This document shows, in pieces, positions 25,526 to 38,152 of a stretch of DNA of 64,000 nucleotides. Below the pieces are notes generated by a model, which had not been told where the DNA came from, ran no database searches, and worked only from the letters and a program-made list of their open reading frames with translations. Origin of the DNA: Candidatus Obscuribacteraceae bacterium (GTDB taxonomy: Bacteria; Cyanobacteriota; Vampirovibrionia; Obscuribacterales; Obscuribacteraceae); NCBI GenBank assembly GCA_044226015.1, contig JBGAHS010000001.1:256001-320000 (forward strand), written 5' to 3'. How positions within the stretch are numbered: position 1 is the first letter of the stretch; each line of letters begins with the position of its first letter. Position numbers and translations under genes: made by a program.

Positions 25526-26410
25526 TTAGCTTGCGATAAGTTGAGCCTCTTTGGAAAGTGTTCCGAGATTTCTTAGTACTGTCGAAGTAGACAAGAAAAG
25601 TTCATTGCAAAGTGTTTGCGCGTGATTAACTGAAACAGTCCCTTCGGCCAACATTCTGTTTATGGAAATTGATGCTGCAAATTTCAAATTTGCGATAATC
25701 GTATTGGAAGTTAGAGAGCCCTTCCAGAGAGCTTCTCTCTGCAGTGCTTCTTCAATTATGTCCACTACCTCATGTTCCGTCAGAATGCCTGATTCGATTA
25801 ATTCCTCGCTAATGCTGTGAATCGGTGAGGATTCTAATCCCATCAAATCGCTGATGCTGCGACCTGTTCGTAGCACGGCTCGCATTGCAGCCACGCCATG
25901 CTCGTAAGTGATGTCGCCGCTACGCACCAAAATTATGGTATCAAGCGCAGCTTTGCGGAGGTCCATGGTAAGTTTTCCCTGCACAGTCAGGACGCGGCCC
26001 AGGGCATAGTCATGCTTGATTGCAAGGGCTAACGATGAGCCTAATTGATGTGACTCAATTATTCCTACATCCATCAGCAGTTTGGCAAACTGATGTATTT
26101 GCTCGTTTGCATGCAACCAACGGCCTCTTGCAAGCGCAGCTTCAGCATCCATTTTTTGCTCTTTCACCAGTCTGAGTGCATCGACTGCATGTCTGTACGA
26201 AATCAGTGATTGGCGCAACATACGTTGTGCAGTGAGTGCGGTTCGGAGATGGTAATCCGATACTAAACCTGAGTACAGAAGCACCTGACCAATGCGGACG
26301 CAATGCTCTTTTGCTTTTTCCAGCGCTATGTCGAGTAATTTGGGTTCAAGAATACCTGAATCAACCAACAGTTGCCCAACCAGTATGGGCACTAGTTTCT
26401 TGTATTGCAT
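25526..26410 (-). CDS. Stand-alone protein of tandem MshEN-like (GSPII_N) motifs
   Basis: LVGQLLVDSGIL...ALEKA, 5-aa linker, RIGQVLLYSGLVSDYHLRTALTAQ, plus degenerate copies; SD GGAG. Confidence 0.7.
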   Translation of the reverse strand: MQYKKLVPILVGQLLVDSGILEPKLLDIALEKAKEHCVRIGQVLLYSGLVSDYHLRTALTAQRMLRQSLISYRHAVDALRLVKEQKMDAEAALARGRWLHANEQIHQFAKLLMDVGIIESHQLGSSLALAIKHDYALGRVLTVQGKLTMDLRKAALDTIILVRSGDITYEHGVAAMRAVLRTGRSISDLMGLESSPIHSISEELIESGILTEHEVVDIIEEALQREALWKGSLTSNTIIANLKFAASISINRMLAEGTVSVNHAQTLCNELFLSTSTVLRNLGTLSKEAQLIAS

Positions 26411-26898: not shown

Positions 26899-27321
26899 AT
26901 GGCTAACGATATCGAAGTAGCAGTAAAGCATGCAGTTGAGAAGCAACACCTGAAGCCAGGAACAGAAGTCAGCAATGAAGCGGCGATGACAATGATGAAT
27001 GATGTGTGGAAGGAAGTGGCTCAGAAGCAAAGTAAATGGACTGACAAACCAGTAAGTGCAGACACAATGAAAGTAGCGGCCGACAAGTTGTCAAATTCAT
27101 TGCAAAAGTATGGTGTTAAAGACATTGAGTTTTACGACAGCAACAATGATGGCAAGGCAGACAAAAACGATGCAGTTGCAGTGAAGAAGGGCATTATCTT
27201 CGGAAACAGTGACTATAAACTGGGAGATAGACCTACTGCAGCAGAGCCGGGACCAATGCAGATTCGCCAGATCAAGGAATACAACAAGGACCCACGCGAT
27301 ATCAAGATTCAAGGCTATTAA
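26899..27321 (+). CDS. Hypothetical protein with EF-hand-like loop
   Basis: SD GGAGG; DSNNDGKADKND (DxNxDG) motif. Confidence 0.75.
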   Translation: MANDIEVAVKHAVEKQHLKPGTEVSNEAAMTMMNDVWKEVAQKQSKWTDKPVSADTMKVAADKLSNSLQKYGVKDIEFYDSNNDGKADKNDAVAVKKGIIFGNSDYKLGDRPTAAEPGPMQIRQIKEYNKDPRDIKIQGY

Positions 27322-27422: not shown

Positions 27423-27641
27423 CTATATTCGCGTTAACGTGCTGCGTGCCTCTTTGAGAATACGCAATACCTCGTCGTCATCTTCAATGTGCCGAAAGTT
27501 TTCAAATAGATCTTCGGAGTCAAAAATGTCGCCATAACGCCATTTGCTATCACGGAAGGATGCGCTGAAATTGTCAGTTTGATCAGCAATGAGAATTTCA
27601 CCGTCCGGTGACCTCATTGCGAGAACGTGATCCATCTTCAA
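27423..27641 (-). CDS. Small acidic protein, putative immunity/antitoxin
   Basis: 72-aa ORF whose TTG start overlaps the upstream TGA (alternative ATG at 27635); SD GGAGG lies inside the upstream gene end. Confidence 0.6.
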   Translation of the reverse strand: MKMDHVLAMRSPDGEILIADQTDNFSASFRDSKWRYGDIFDSEDLFENFRHIEDDDEVLRILKEARSTLTRI

Positions 27642-29929
27642 ATTTTTTCCTCCGTGAGTTCGCGACGAAGTTCTTTCATGATTTGTTTTACGTGGTCTTC
27701 AGATTGCGAAGTTCTTCTTAAATAGTCTTGCCATGCGTTTTGTGATATGTCGCGTGCGTAAATCAAATCATTTCTTCTTTGGATCTTTTGTTCTAAGCTG
27801 AGACTTTCAATCGGAAGGTCTCTCCATTTATCATAGATTGGATGTGTCTTTTTTCCTACCTCATACATTTCTCGGGGAATGACCTGGTACTCTAAAAGCT
27901 GTCCGTTAGGTGCTCTTAAGTCAAAAGGCATTGCCCGCCACCCCCTTCCGTTTGGCTGCATTTTACCCAGGTTTGCTTCGAGTATTTGAAAGGGACTTTT
28001 CTTAAGATCTCGAGTGATGTGAGGTAGGTCATTCAGGTTGTCTAAAATCGTTGTGAATCTCTGTGTGTCTCGAAGATGTTCTATGCCGAACCAGGGCTTT
28101 CTTTCCCGTGTCTCAGGACGCCCCACTTTTCTCAGTGTGGATGCAGTTTCTTTGGGAGTGCCATATGAGTAACTATCATATTTGCTATCAATGAAACTCT
28201 TGAATTGGTCGATTATCGGCTGGTTCTCGCGAGAGAGCCTTTGAATTTGGCTTATCTTTTCTTTCGGACTTGCGTTTTTATCGATAGGGTTGGTTATGTG
28301 CTGCGGCTTCAGATCGTTGCCATTTGTGCGCTTAATGCCAAATTCGGCTAATTCAGCCGGCGATCTGCTTTCAAGTTTTGCTGATTGGACTTGAGCTGGT
28401 GTTAACAGCTCGCCCTTTGAGTCCAGGTATACTTCTGATACTCGAATTACTTCTGTCGTCGTGTTTTGTGTGCCGCTTGAGGAATTGCTTTCTCTTGCTT
28501 GTCCCGTTGTTACTCTTGTATCAACTGCAACGCTCTTCTCGTTGCTTGGAGAGCCGGCGCCACCTTTGAGGCGACGTTTGTCAATGTACATGTTTTGATC
28601 GGCGTCGTGTAAAAGTGCTTTTGCATCTTTATAATTTCTCGCCTGGGGCTCAAAAGTCGAGGCACCAATGCTGGTGCCAATGGGATAGCCTGTTCCGTCT
28701 GGCGCGCTAAGAGTGAACTGCAGGTGTGCCTGGATGTCTTGAGCAACCCGACGAGCGCCTTCTGCCGAAGTGTTTGGAAGAATTGCTACAAACTCGTCTC
28801 CACCATTACGGAAGAGTGAATCGGATTTTCGCAGGCGTTCAGAGATTAAATCGGCGGACTTCATCAGCGCCTTGTTGCCAACTTCATGACCTAGTGCGTC
28901 ATTTACTTTTTTGAATCCATTCAAGTCAAGGAATAGCACTGAAAGTGGGGTTGAACTGCGGGCGGCGCTGGCGAATTCTTTGTCCATCATCTCGAAACCA
29001 GCGCGCTGATTCTTTAGCCCCGTAAGAGCATCGACGGTGGAAATTTGGTTCAGCTTTTCATTTTCTTCTGTGAGTTTGGCAATCTTTTGCTTTAAATCTG
29101 TGAGCTGCTTGTCTGTTTCGAGCAAGTGGGGCGCCGTTTCTTCCAAGGCTTTTGGGGCGCATTCTTTTATTTTTGCTTCTGCTTTTGCAAAGCCCGAGCC
29201 GAGAACACATTGTGTTGCAATGCCATCTAGCAACTCTTCGTTTCTTGCGAGTCGGTTCTGGTCGATTAATGAATTCATTTCGGTGGCGACGAATCCACTG
29301 GGTATTCCTGCTAGCCCACCAGCTATGAGCGGCTTGCGCAGTAGCAACTGTGCTGAGCTGAGTTCTCCTTGCGTGGGAATTGCCCTCAGTTTGTTTGTGC
29401 TGTAGTGCAGTGCACTGAATGCGATACCATTGCTTAAGCCGTGCAGTCCTCTATTTGTCCAGAACTTATCGTCGGCTACTGCGCCTGCTGTCGCTGGCGT
29501 GAAGACGGAACCGTAAGTGAAGCCGGTAATTCCTGATTGAATCAGTTCTCTGGTGGGTTTTCCGAGGCTGCGATTTAGATCGGCACAAGCAAGCTGTTCG
29601 GTTTTGTTTAGCAGTCCGCCGCTGACCTTATGAGTAAGAAGCAAGAGGGGAATTTGACCTAATGCCGAGCCTGTTATTTGTGCCAACCAGGGCGCTGATA
29701 ACGTTTTGTTTTGTAGCTGATCAGGGCGCTCTTTTTCCACGCTTCTGGCGAAGTCTTCACCAGTTTTGCCGGGGCACATATGCGCAATAGCCTGCTTGAG
29801 TGCGAACGCCGGTTCCTCATAAAGAGACTGCACAAACGAAACGGCGAAGGTTGACGCACAAGTTTCCAGCTGGCTCTTTGGCCTCTCTGTGTTGAGAAGC
29901 TCGGCAAAATTTCTTGATCCTGGGTCCAT
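27638..29929 (-). CDS. Multidomain protein: hydrophobic N-terminal trunk + coiled coil + GGDEF + C-terminal RelA/SpoT-like nucleotidyltransferase
   Basis: DALTG, DLNGFKKVND..GH, RKSD I-site, GGDEF; C-terminal KETASTLRK, RDTQRF, GWRA, NGQLLEYQV, HPIYDKWR. Confidence 0.8.
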   Translation of the reverse strand: MDPGSRNFAELLNTERPKSQLETCASTFAVSFVQSLYEEPAFALKQAIAHMCPGKTGEDFARSVEKERPDQLQNKTLSAPWLAQITGSALGQIPLLLLTHKVSGGLLNKTEQLACADLNRSLGKPTRELIQSGITGFTYGSVFTPATAGAVADDKFWTNRGLHGLSNGIAFSALHYSTNKLRAIPTQGELSSAQLLLRKPLIAGGLAGIPSGFVATEMNSLIDQNRLARNEELLDGIATQCVLGSGFAKAEAKIKECAPKALEETAPHLLETDKQLTDLKQKIAKLTEENEKLNQISTVDALTGLKNQRAGFEMMDKEFASAARSSTPLSVLFLDLNGFKKVNDALGHEVGNKALMKSADLISERLRKSDSLFRNGGDEFVAILPNTSAEGARRVAQDIQAHLQFTLSAPDGTGYPIGTSIGASTFEPQARNYKDAKALLHDADQNMYIDKRRLKGGAGSPSNEKSVAVDTRVTTGQARESNSSSGTQNTTTEVIRVSEVYLDSKGELLTPAQVQSAKLESRSPAELAEFGIKRTNGNDLKPQHITNPIDKNASPKEKISQIQRLSRENQPIIDQFKSFIDSKYDSYSYGTPKETASTLRKVGRPETRERKPWFGIEHLRDTQRFTTILDNLNDLPHITRDLKKSPFQILEANLGKMQPNGRGWRAMPFDLRAPNGQLLEYQVIPREMYEVGKKTHPIYDKWRDLPIESLSLEQKIQRRNDLIYARDISQNAWQDYLRRTSQSEDHVKQIMKELRRELTEEKI

Positions 29930-30143: not shown

Positions 30144-30953
30144 TTGGTAGTAGAATCGCATTCGCTAATGAGGATGTTCATGAAAACGCGTGGATTTGTT
30201 TCGGTGATTGTTTTTGGACTGAGCGGATGTGCTTTCCTTTTGCAGTCGACAGTTCCACTTCGTGCATTTGCTGCTGAGGTGAAGCGTCCTTCCATGGTGC
30301 GCCGAGAAGAGTGGGGCTCGAAAGCCGACGCAATACCTGACTCGCGAAAACAGGTTCCTGTTTGGATTACGATTCACCATGCTGGAGAATTTTGGAAGTA
30401 TGGAAGTGACCCCGCAGAATTCGTGAGGCACATGCAAGTCTGGGGGCAAAATCGTCCGAAGTTGGAAAAGCCACCGCGTGATACCTATTGGCCCGACCTG
30501 CCCTATCACTACCTCATCGCTCCTGATGGGAGAATCTTTGAAGGGCGCCCTGTTGAATACGAACCTGAGACAAACACCAAGTATTCGGTAAACGGTAACA
30601 TCGGTGTCGAAATGATGGGTGATTTTGAAAAGCAGCGCCCTGGACTAGAGCAAATTCGCTCGTGCGCTCAATTGACAGCGTGGCTTGCTCAGAAACACAA
30701 AATTGATGCAGAGCATATTCGCACTCACATGGATGCTGCACCTGGTCAAACCGATTGCCCCGGACGAGATTTTTACCGTTATATAAAAGATGGTCAGTTC
30801 AAAACTTGGGTGAAGGAGATTCAAAAGGGCAAGAAGCCTGAGATAAAGGAAGGACCGGCGTTAAAGGAAGGACCGCTTTTGTCCATAAATGACCCTGCTT
30901 CTAAGCCCCCCGAGGCTGCCGTTGAGCCCACCGTTGAGCCTGCCGCAAAATAG
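30144..30953 (+). CDS. Secreted N-acetylmuramoyl-L-alanine amidase (Amidase_2/PGRP-like); start probably 30168-30180
   Basis: ITIHHAG, DLPYHYLI..DGRIFEGR, RTHMD, TDCPG zinc-ligand motifs; signal peptide. Confidence 0.88.
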   Translation: MVVESHSLMRMFMKTRGFVSVIVFGLSGCAFLLQSTVPLRAFAAEVKRPSMVRREEWGSKADAIPDSRKQVPVWITIHHAGEFWKYGSDPAEFVRHMQVWGQNRPKLEKPPRDTYWPDLPYHYLIAPDGRIFEGRPVEYEPETNTKYSVNGNIGVEMMGDFEKQRPGLEQIRSCAQLTAWLAQKHKIDAEHIRTHMDAAPGQTDCPGRDFYRYIKDGQFKTWVKEIQKGKKPEIKEGPALKEGPLLSINDPASKPPEAAVEPTVEPAAK

Positions 30954-33992: not shown

Positions 33993-34022
33993 TTGTGCAT
34001 TAGTGATTAGCTCTAATACAAT
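33993..34022 (+). promoter_or_regulatory. Candidate sigma70-type promoter directly upstream of tRNA-Ile
   Basis: TTGTGC-18 bp-TACAAT, ending 11 nt before the tRNA; preceded by an imperfect palindrome at 33965-33990. Confidence 0.5.
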
Positions 34023-34033
34023 ATTTCTTCTGC

Positions 34034-34107
34034 GGGCTATTAGCTCAGGTGGCTAGAGCGCACCCCTGATAAGGGTGAGGTCCCTGGTTCGAGTCCAGGA
34101 TGGCCCA
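34034..34107 (+). tRNA. tRNA-Ile(GAU)
   Basis: Cloverleaf; anticodon arm CACCC-CT-GAT-AA-GGGTG; T-loop TTCGAGT; CCA not encoded. Confidence 0.97.
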
Positions 34108-34226
34108 GGTTTCTACTCCGATCATTGGATTTTCGGAACCAAGTCTGAAGGAAATGCTAAAGCATTCTGAACGGCGAGAAAAACGAAAACGAATGTGGTA
34201 AAACTAAAAGGAGTGGAAGCGGTGTT

Positions 34227-34302
34227 GGGGGCTTGGCTCAGTTGGTAGAGCGTCTCGTTTGCACCGAGAAGGTCAGCGGTTCGAATCCGCTAGCCTCCAC
34301 CA
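34227..34302 (+). tRNA. tRNA-Ala(UGC)
   Basis: G3:U70 acceptor pair; anticodon arm TCTCG-TT-TGC-AC-CGAGA; encoded CCA. Confidence 0.97.
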
Positions 34303-34461
34303 ATTCAAAACGCCAAATGAAATGGCTAAGTCACAATTCATAACACGAATGTGGAAATGCTAAATCGAATCTGGTAGTATTGATATTCCGCGGTGAACGA
34401 AAGAGTAATTCGAAAGTTCATTCGCAAGCGGCAAATCCAAGAGCCGTGTAAATCTTGGTCC

Positions 34462-34491
34462 GTACCCTGAAAACTGCATATTGAGAAGTAA
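34462..34491 (+). other. 5' strand of 23S processing stem (pairs with 37581-37609)
   Basis: GTACCCTGAAAACTGCATATTGAGAAGTAA is largely complementary to TTACTTCTCGTATGCAGTCTTCAGGGTAC. Confidence 0.8.
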
Positions 34492-34582
34492 AGATAAAAC
34501 GAAAGTCTGTATCTCATCAGAAGGCTTTCAGGCGATGACTCACCGGAGACTTAGTAATCCCGGATGAAGAGCCTGAGAAGCT

Positions 34583-37553
<2,971 letters not shown>

Positions 37554-37639
37554 AGTTATTTGATGAAATACCTTTCGAACTTACTTCTCGTATGCAGTCT
37601 TCAGGGTACTGGTTCTATAACCAGTAAACCCTAACGGTT

Positions 37640-37756
37640 TCTTGGTACCCATGCGACTGGAACACACCCGTTCCCATCCCGAACACGAAGGTAAAGACGG
37701 TCAGCAGCGACAATACTTGGTGGGTGACCGCCCGGAAAGATAGCCCGGTGCCAGGA
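37640..37756 (+). rRNA. rrf: 5S ribosomal RNA
   Basis: CACCCGTTCCCATCCCGAACACG core; terminal helix TCTTGGTAC/GTGCCAGGA. Confidence 0.95.
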
Positions 37757-37762
37757 TCTATG

Positions 37763-37800
37763 AAGCCCTTGAGTTAATAGCTCAAGGGCTTTTATTTTTT
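37763..37800 (+). terminator. rRNA operon intrinsic terminator
   Basis: AAGCCCTTGAG-TTAATAG-CTCAAGGGCTT followed by a T tract. Confidence 0.9.
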
Positions 37801-37929
37801 GTACTTTTATTCAATCTCCCAAGGTCGGCTTAGCAGGCAGCTTCCGACTTGGACTTTACTGTTTACTTGGACTTTACGGTTTGCTCAATCCTTTCATATT
37901 GACTCGTCCGAGCCACAGGTAATTAAGTT

Positions 37930-38152
37930 TGGCTTGTTGATTGGTGGGTTTGGTTTGGGCTGTTTGATTGGCTCGTCGATTGACTTTGGTGGGCTTGTTG
38001 ATTGGGCTTTCGATTTTCTTGTTGGTTAGATTGGCTTGTTGATTGGCTGGTTAGATTGGCTTATCGGTGGGGTTGTTGATTGGGCTTTCGATTTTCTTGT
38101 TGGTTAGATTGGCTTGTTGATTGGCTTATCGGTGGGGTTGTTTGATTGGCTT
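37930..38152. repeat. G/T-skewed repeat region with 10 GATTGG motifs and a 54-bp direct repeat
   Basis: Identical 54-mers at 37995-38048 and 38073-38126. Confidence 0.85.

Follow-up and report, generated by a model that had tools for sequence, protein, structure and literature searches.

Toxins of the alarmone-synthetase type that pair with small binding immunity proteins and ride on varied carriers are well described in the parts of the literature compared here (including PMC10083569, PMC7229694, PMC12226406 and PMC12691689). The systems closest to the locus reported below are Tas1/Apk1-Tis1 of the Pseudomonas type VI secretion system (T6SS; PDB 6OX6), Apk2 (MuF) with IapK/BcTis1 and Aph1, the exported alarmone synthetases such as SaEAS (8VX3; PMC12691689), and the toxSAS enzymes FaRel2, PhRel2 and CapRel. 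We analyzed a 64,000-nucleotide stretch of DNA, called the window, from a Candidatus Obscuribacteraceae bacterium (assembly GCA_044226015.1, contig JBGAHS010000001.1, positions 256,001 to 320,000 of the forward strand; source genome, G000). A gene on its minus strand encodes a 763-aa fusion of a GGDEF domain to a C-terminal domain (the tip) with a predicted small-alarmone-synthetase (SAS) fold, and is followed by a gene for a 72-aa protein. The two genes probably form a polymorphic-toxin-like effector and immunity pair of this Obscuribacterales bacterium.

As in Tas1/Apk1-Tis1, a hydrolase-less SAS-fold tip stands at the C-terminus (VIA structure comparison, Z 12.3, rmsd 3.3, 166 residues aligned), and a gene of some 75 codons comes next. 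Unlike Tas1, the protein lacks a PAAR domain, no T6SS was found, identity is 14%, and a GGDEF domain is added. Predicted immunity of the binding type is shared with Apk2, and the syn2 motif of the tip, RFT, loosely resembles the RYT given for Apk2 in the part of PMC12226406 compared. By contrast, the Apk signatures GxN and YH are absent, with GWRAMP at syn3 and EYQVI at syn4, no hydrolase gene is coupled to the operon, and Pfam and NCBIfam found neither PAAR nor MuF in the N-terminus. SaEAS was the top Foldseek match of the tip model (E 2.9e-7) and the best match in a single-sequence PDB search (E 0.13). Unlike the exported alarmone synthetases, the fusion has no Sec, WXG/LXG, XopAD, MuF, DUF4157 or Rhs/PAAR carrier and does have an immunity gene; the names and motifs of its clade do not occur in six searched supplement files of PMC12691689. 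The toxSAS enzymes share the fold (CapRel, Z 12.6; FaRel2, Z 7.7) and the two-gene layout, but are single-domain or fused toxin-antitoxins.

The large open reading frame (ORF; 27638-29929, minus strand) encodes trunk, coiled coil, GGDEF domain, linker and tip in that order:

29156..29902, minus strand: trunk (aa ~10-258), an order-specific Gly/Ala-rich helical carrier domain found in 19 ORFs of G000
29039..29128, minus strand: predicted coiled coil (aa ~268-297), heptad-like, leading into the GGDEF domain and aligning with the helices that precede the TpbB and WspR GGDEF domains
28571..29038, minus strand: GGDEF domain (aa 298-453), Pfam PF00990, with non-canonical specificity positions Gln308 and Asn352
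28454..28561, minus strand: Ser/Thr-rich variable linker (aa 457-492), 11-14% identical across orthologues and a likely graft junction
28295..28453, minus strand: pre-tip motif (aa 493-545), common to tips on unrelated N-termini
27638..28294, minus strand: SAS-fold tip (aa 546-763), a predicted toxic 3'-pyrophosphokinase by structure model, Foldseek and VIA
27649..27653, minus strand: Shine-Dalgarno GGAGG of the small gene, within the last codons of the tip
27423..27641, minus strand: 72-aa acidic protein, the predicted immunity protein (antitoxin) by family alignment, adjacency, structure model and complex score

A preliminary description of this locus had reported a 763-aa ORF whose stop codon is overlapped by a 72-aa acidic ORF. 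Both are present: the TTG start of the small gene overlaps the TGA of the large gene by 4 nt, with GGAGG 7 nt upstream, and the small protein has 17 Asp or Glu residues against 10 Lys or Arg. The coiled coil that it had placed before the GGDEF domain was also recovered as heptad-like sequence. Its Gly-rich hydrophobic trunk survives as a helical carrier domain, with just 9.5% Gly and weak hydrophobicity (the highest Kyte-Doolittle mean over 19 residues is 1.21, and every window within the first 78 residues stays at or below 1.0). Likewise, its Ser/Thr linker holds for aa 457-492 but not for aa 493-545, the conserved pre-tip motif, a profile of which matched the fusion gene and a second tip gene alone in G000, as well as tip genes of relatives. 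A promoter and terminator scan of the locus gave chance-level results, and beyond the GGDEF domain Pfam had no credible match to the 763-aa protein.

The five ordered C-terminal motifs previously noted were all found, as K593-S-RK601, RD621TQRF, G663WR, N675GQLLE680YQ and H696PIYDKWR703. They are features of a family and not chance, because none of K601, R604, D621, E680 and R703 varies among the aligned domain copies (153 of 153). When 1.84 billion representatives were searched, 360 relatives emerged, counted as representatives at 50% identity. The best 150 of these were considered, and 158 proteins in all supplied the 153 domain copies, of which 53 are C-terminal and 73 lie within proteins of more than 1000 aa. 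The tip model (pLDDT 93.7) most resembled SAS1 in VIA (Z 15.2, rmsd 3.4, 175 aligned), followed by SaEAS (13.6), CapRel and Tas1; other nucleotidyltransferases lay far lower, at Z 6.5 or less. Tip profile A1 matched YwaC (E 1.8e-5), with motifs that align with those of YwaC and SaEAS; unlike A1, profile A2 recovered no SAS structures. A tip lacking the nucleotidyltransferase fold had been named as an outcome that would overturn the proposal, and the fold is present by Foldseek, VIA and the YwaC match. We conclude from the model that the tip is an enzyme of the SAS fold whose catalytic residues are intact.

Within the same family the tip occurred in 18 of 96 genomes, as against none of the 204 other genomes of the class, and tblastn of the tip against annotated phages and plasmids gave no match. 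The tip rides on many unrelated N-termini: just 3 of 11 tip matches bear a GGDEF domain, and 9 of 40 scanned relatives contain ART-PolyVal, ddrB-ParB, InPase or LPD38. G000 itself has a second tip gene (C6:278315-280829) with a 55% identical tip and another N-terminus, followed by two copies of the small gene. Tips that lack the trunk, about 270 aa long and accompanied by a small gene in divergent arrangement, were seen at L023, L027, L040, L042, L044 and L082; some genomes have two copies.

In the proposed mechanism, the tip would move pyrophosphate from ATP onto a 3'-OH acceptor, and growth of a bacterial cell would stop. The acceptor-site motifs match neither the Apk nor the RSH signatures in the part of PMC12226406 compared, and, in the part consulted of bioRxiv 2021.04.30.441581, tRNA use by toxSAS enzymes is stated to have no sequence signature. 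Among the candidates, (p)ppApp is the leading one, at slightly under even likelihood; the tRNA CCA end appears less likely, and (p)ppGpp marginally less likely again.

The 72-aa protein belongs to a conserved family in which certain Ala, Trp, Phe and Leu residues never vary. The family has no name in any source, and the protein has no Pfam, NCBIfam or PHROG match and no usable one in the protein atlas. Of 25 distinct tip loci in relatives, 22 have the small gene no more than 1.5 kb away, as judged by a profile made from G000 copies only (16 tandem, 5 divergent and 1 convergent; 28 listed loci minus two from G000 and one duplicate). The other three loci are one fragment and two non-terminal copies. 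Among the 96 family genomes, 26 contain the small-protein family, every one of the 18 with a tip among them, and none of 204 genomes outside does; only the 8 additional genomes and the zero are new information, because the presence profile was built from tip-adjacent copies. Orphan copies are present in G000 (two at C6:213942-214601 and one at C4:227842-228060) and in these 8 genomes with no detected tip. None of the 18 other trunk paralogues of G000 is followed by the small-gene family, and 14 have no coupled ORF at all.

The small protein was modelled with pLDDT 93.1. Prediction of its complex with the tip, which had been proposed as a check, gave a score of 0.79 (best of three controls, 0.01) and passed a mark reached by 116 of 157 solved pairs and 2 of 215 mismatched pairs, with contact agreement of at least 98% and partner pLDDT of at least 88 across runs. 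The predicted interface comprises the Q658-G663 loop just before W664 and the Y699-R726 helices around R703, a contact surface that by analogy would be the acceptor side. VIA ranked Tis1 second of 48,161 chains for the small-protein model, at a Z of 3.9 that lies under the level of a trusted match (rmsd 4.3, 60 aligned), and Foldseek against PDB and BFVD returned nothing at E 0.001, Tis1 included. Genetic linkage and the model together give good support to the 72-aa ORF as the predicted cognate immunity protein, and a toxin plus antidote pair is highly probable. The protein would be produced by translational coupling, bind beside the acceptor loop and block the tip in the producer.

Further evidence came from phages, whose polyvalent proteins contain the tip family as an internal domain, whereas the present gene lies on a bacterial chromosome with the trunk as carrier. 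RelA/SpoT and GGDEF domains are both given, separately, among polyvalent-protein domains in the portion of PMC5512222 compared, and that portion has no mention of a nested antisense antidote. The first set comprised 29 loci at which a long ORF encloses the tip domain; at 27 of them an ORF on the opposite strand, in one relative frame, ends 20-130 nt before the domain end. A strong Shine-Dalgarno sequence with ATG or GTG 55-105 codons upstream was present in 22 of 29, compared with 6 of 226 same-frame controls, and 14 of the antisense ORFs matched the small-protein profile. Conversely, a profile made from antisense ORFs only ranked the 72-aa ORF first of 65,903 G000 ORFs (E 2e-8). The hold-out set added 43 IMG/VR loci (12 of the 55 found had been seen before) and contained 30 distinct tips, 29 of them internal. 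All 29 have the antisense ORF, and 28 have the start signal, compared with 3 of 140 controls; a direct match to the bacterial profile was seen in 5, and to the antisense profile in 29. The counts from these loci are not independent, because many of the phages are close kin. Passive shadows of the sense gene were considered as a source of the antisense ORFs and rejected, because the start signals lie far above control and the ORFs match a free-standing gene. The small gene travels with the tip across bacteria and phages, and the phage loci give strong indirect evidence that the SAS domain is toxic in the bacterial cytoplasm and needs its small partner. A literature search found no nested antisense antitoxin; most subscription journals lay outside the scope of this and of the other literature searches reported here. 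Where the SAS domain ends, nested homologues equipped with GGAGG and ATG lie at L118:4579-4794 (minus strand), L147, L111-L122 and L142-L195. By eye, a -10-like hexamer often stands upstream of the nested phage gene.

The GGDEF domain is complete, as the preliminary description had it (PF00990, E 1.7e-35, aa 298-453, profile positions 2-157 of 161), and the GGDEF motif, D335, K340, N343, K451 and the I-site RKSD are all intact, so that the GG(D/E)EF, metal Asp, Lys and sugar-face Asn features of canonical cyclases are present. It is not canonical, however: that description overlooked Asn352 in place of the guanine-reading Asp and Gln308 in place of the cross-dimer Arg, changes found in all three orthologues. 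By residue spacing from numbers in PMC6456294, Gln308 and Asn352 correspond to GacA positions 304 and 348, with a constant offset of 4 to Asn339, Ser348 and Asp374. According to sections 12 and 13 of that paper, this Asp and Arg are two specificity positions; non-Asp enzymes require the GGDEF motif (section 12), which is present here, and Gln at 304 accompanies mainly cGAMP (section 13). The domain thus resembles the Hypr enzyme GacA in its GGDEF motif and non-Arg cross-dimer residue, and differs in having no receiver domain and Asn, not Ser or Thr, at the Watson-Crick position. Among 22 GGDEF ORFs in G000, 18 have Asp and one has Ser at this position, and the two other Asn cases are degenerate. 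The Ser case (C5:112237-113373, with the GGDEF motif and Ser at the GacA 348 position) is a Hypr candidate. Giant ORFs with tandem GGDEF domains about 250 aa apart occur at L128, L129 and L131 (G256, G128 and G212; 11,971, 7,394, 2,399 and 2,820 aa).

From its residues, the GGDEF domain may make an adenine-containing dinucleotide or be a receptor only. General chemistry suggests that the Asn amide could read adenine, and inactivation is equally possible. The preliminary description proposed that the protein makes two products, a cyclic dinucleotide and an alarmone-like or tRNA-pyrophosphorylated one. In a form of this idea that fits the new residues, a switched GGDEF domain would produce 3',3'-cGAMP or c-di-AMP and the tip an alarmone-like compound, so that ATP is drained or the nucleotide sensing of the target is tripped. 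Consistent with such a weapon, the GGDEF motif is kept, Gln308 and Asn352 fall at GacA 304 and 348 with the Gln-cGAMP link of PMC6456294, and both changes occur in 3 of 3 fusions while all 5 tip-less trunk-GGDEF proteins retain Asp. In addition, no other domain of the three orthologues is as well conserved as the GGDEF (75-76% identity, compared with 69-71% for the tip). Against it, the parts of PMC6456294 compared give Ser or Thr, not Asn, for known Hypr enzymes and report that Asp-to-Ser abolished activity in 4 of 5 canonical enzymes; the literature search found no Asn-variant GGDEF, the other two Asn domains of G000 are degenerate, and there are just three orthologues. We regard this weapon as rather unlikely, and a non-guanine product of the GGDEF domain as similarly doubtful.

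A single-activity toxin, with the GGDEF domain as a catalytically silent passenger that dimerises or binds c-di-GMP, would be compatible with an effector and immunity pair and is a substantial possibility, though not the one we favor. Loss of the guanine-reading Asp and cross-dimer Arg beside an intact I-site points this way, as does the common shuffling of cargo on the trunk. However, the metal, phosphate and general-base residues are kept in three orthologues despite linkers of 11-14% identity. We read the domain as a further module that is still under selection and whose base specificity has changed; that it is catalytically active we hold to be slightly more likely than not. The earlier interpretation therefore stands for the RelA/SpoT-type fold, the polymorphic-toxin-like modularity and the small ORF as cognate immunity protein; c-di-GMP synthesis or activity by the GGDEF domain was not established, as two specificity residues are non-canonical, nor was cooperation of the two enzymes, each of which is found on the same trunk without the other. 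Its statement that no fusion of GGDEF with an RSH toxin is known agrees with our literature search, which found none.

The full fusion is rare (3 clusters). A frameshift or chimeric assembly as its source was rejected, because the fusion recurs in three independent proteins that are 63-65% identical. Of 14 GGDEF loci followed up from a search of the order, 5 encode trunk-GGDEF proteins without the tip, and one protein, in genome G256, has trunk and tip without GGDEF. In a quick tip tree (69 rows, midpoint root), which does not show which way transfer ran between phages and bacteria, the three fused tips group as a single clade within a larger set of tips whose N-termini are unrelated. In the simplest history, a cassette of pre-tip, tip and immunity gene would have been grafted behind a trunk-GGDEF gene that was already there.

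The trunk has 18 paralogues in G000 besides the fusion (L001-L017; 19 ORFs in total), and therefore provides the shared N-terminus with variable C-terminal cargo that characterizes polymorphic toxins; the downstream cognate immunity gene with orphan copies is indicated by linkage and model. Cargo is recognizable in 6 of the 18: patatin, isoamylase, PLD-like and DUF2252 domains and, below cut-off, exo/endonuclease-phosphatase and ChaN/Tiki domains. The other 12 have no credible Pfam match; the cargo of the 18 also includes several long domains of no recognized family. The trunk occurred in 87 of 96 same-family genomes, 3 of 3 sister-family genomes, none of 201 other genomes of the class and none of 300 in a phylum sample. 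It had no match in Pfam, NCBIfam or PHROG, and its nearest protein-atlas clusters are unnamed and mostly viral (0.93), with LPD22, LPD14 and P22 gp16 as weak leads. The trunk proteins of G000 are a candidate order-wide effector family, and the literature search found nothing on Obscuribacterales effectors. Their target could be a eukaryotic or algal host or prey, with the tip acting on an organelle or on competitors inside the host. Most trunk cargo has no immunity gene and includes isoamylase and patatin, which would suit such a target, but neither host evidence nor a delivery system was found, and the tip needs an antidote wherever it is present, phages included; we consider this alternative very improbable.

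The weakest step of the proposed mechanism is that the trunk would be an export or delivery module of an undescribed route. Several results weigh against an exported effector with its immunity protein. Searches of G000 (92% complete) for TssC, VirB4, FlhA, contractile sheath and WXG100, as markers for T6SS, type IV secretion (T4SS), flagellar or type III (T3SS) export, contractile sheath and WXG100, found none, and two secretins only. Five loci have a short tip and a divergent small gene with no trunk, resembling a cytoplasmic toxin-antitoxin, and the immunity domain is fused to a trunk-like domain in G076 and G272, which is odd for a pure export signal. The tip itself has zero Pfam, NCBIfam or PHROG matches, and RelA_SpoT was matched by 5 of 40 tip relatives, 1 above cut-off. 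The complex prediction used alignments made in this analysis, and its pass may partly reflect likeness, because the Tas1-Tis1 complex 6OX6 was already solved. Finally, DNA context is available for one fusion cluster of three; scans for that of the other two fusion proteins found nothing. The trunk-immunity fusions (L138:6871-7933 in G076 and L139:7055-8168 in G272, strand coordinates) lie directly behind proteins of 1662-1791 aa that end in a divergent tip.

Some of these observations would also fit a cell-internal toxin-antitoxin or abortive-infection module, in which the trunk is a scaffold or membrane-associated anchor and c-di-GMP at the I-site or GGDEF dimerisation controls the tip. The failure of the searches to find injection machinery in G000, the trunk-immunity fusions, the trunkless pairs of tip and small gene and the intact RKSD I-site agree with such a module; a gene about 1 kb downstream, presumably MshEN-like, can be listed with them. 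By contrast, the patatin, PLD-like, isoamylase and nuclease-like cargo of G000 trunks is more like that of delivered effectors, the orphan and tandem immunity copies fit attack from outside, and a terminal tip with downstream immunity and varied N-termini is the polymorphic-toxin layout. An internal module is thus an improbable alternative, and the protein is probably an exported effector. A bolder version also appears improbable: here the trunk would target proteins to an undescribed delivery system in use across Obscuribacterales, and one chain would join an Asn/Gln GGDEF making cGAMP or c-di-AMP to a new alarmone-type toxin clade whose phage antidote is a complete gene nested antisense within that of the giant, virion-delivered protein that it neutralises.

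Other features of the window are a 294-aa protein (25526-26410, minus strand) with repeated motifs like RIGQVLLYSGLV, which we take to resemble c-di-GMP-binding MshEN modules, although Pfam gave no such match; a 140-aa protein with a weak dockerin/EF-hand-like stretch (26899-27321) and an Amidase_2 protein (30144-30953), both on the plus strand, opposite to the fusion gene; and a region of higher GC with no credible ORFs (~34000-38000), by appearance a candidate ribosomal RNA gene region.

The literature searches brought up neither the trunk carrier nor the GGDEF fusion nor the nested antidote. The locus adds a new clade of putative SAS toxins, with 360 representatives at 50% identity, and a small antidote family named in no library. 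The nested antidote illustrates a way for phages to produce a giant toxin-bearing protein without early killing of the producing cell, and suggests that ordinary gene calling misses such genes. As a natural variant changed at both known specificity positions, the GGDEF domain tests base choice by such enzymes; if true, the Asn/Gln combination would be a second route to non-guanine specificity besides the Hypr enzymes. Finally, the trunk, an order-wide carrier with about 19 cargoes in one genome, offers a handle on how an uncultured cyanobacterial sister group acts on other cells.

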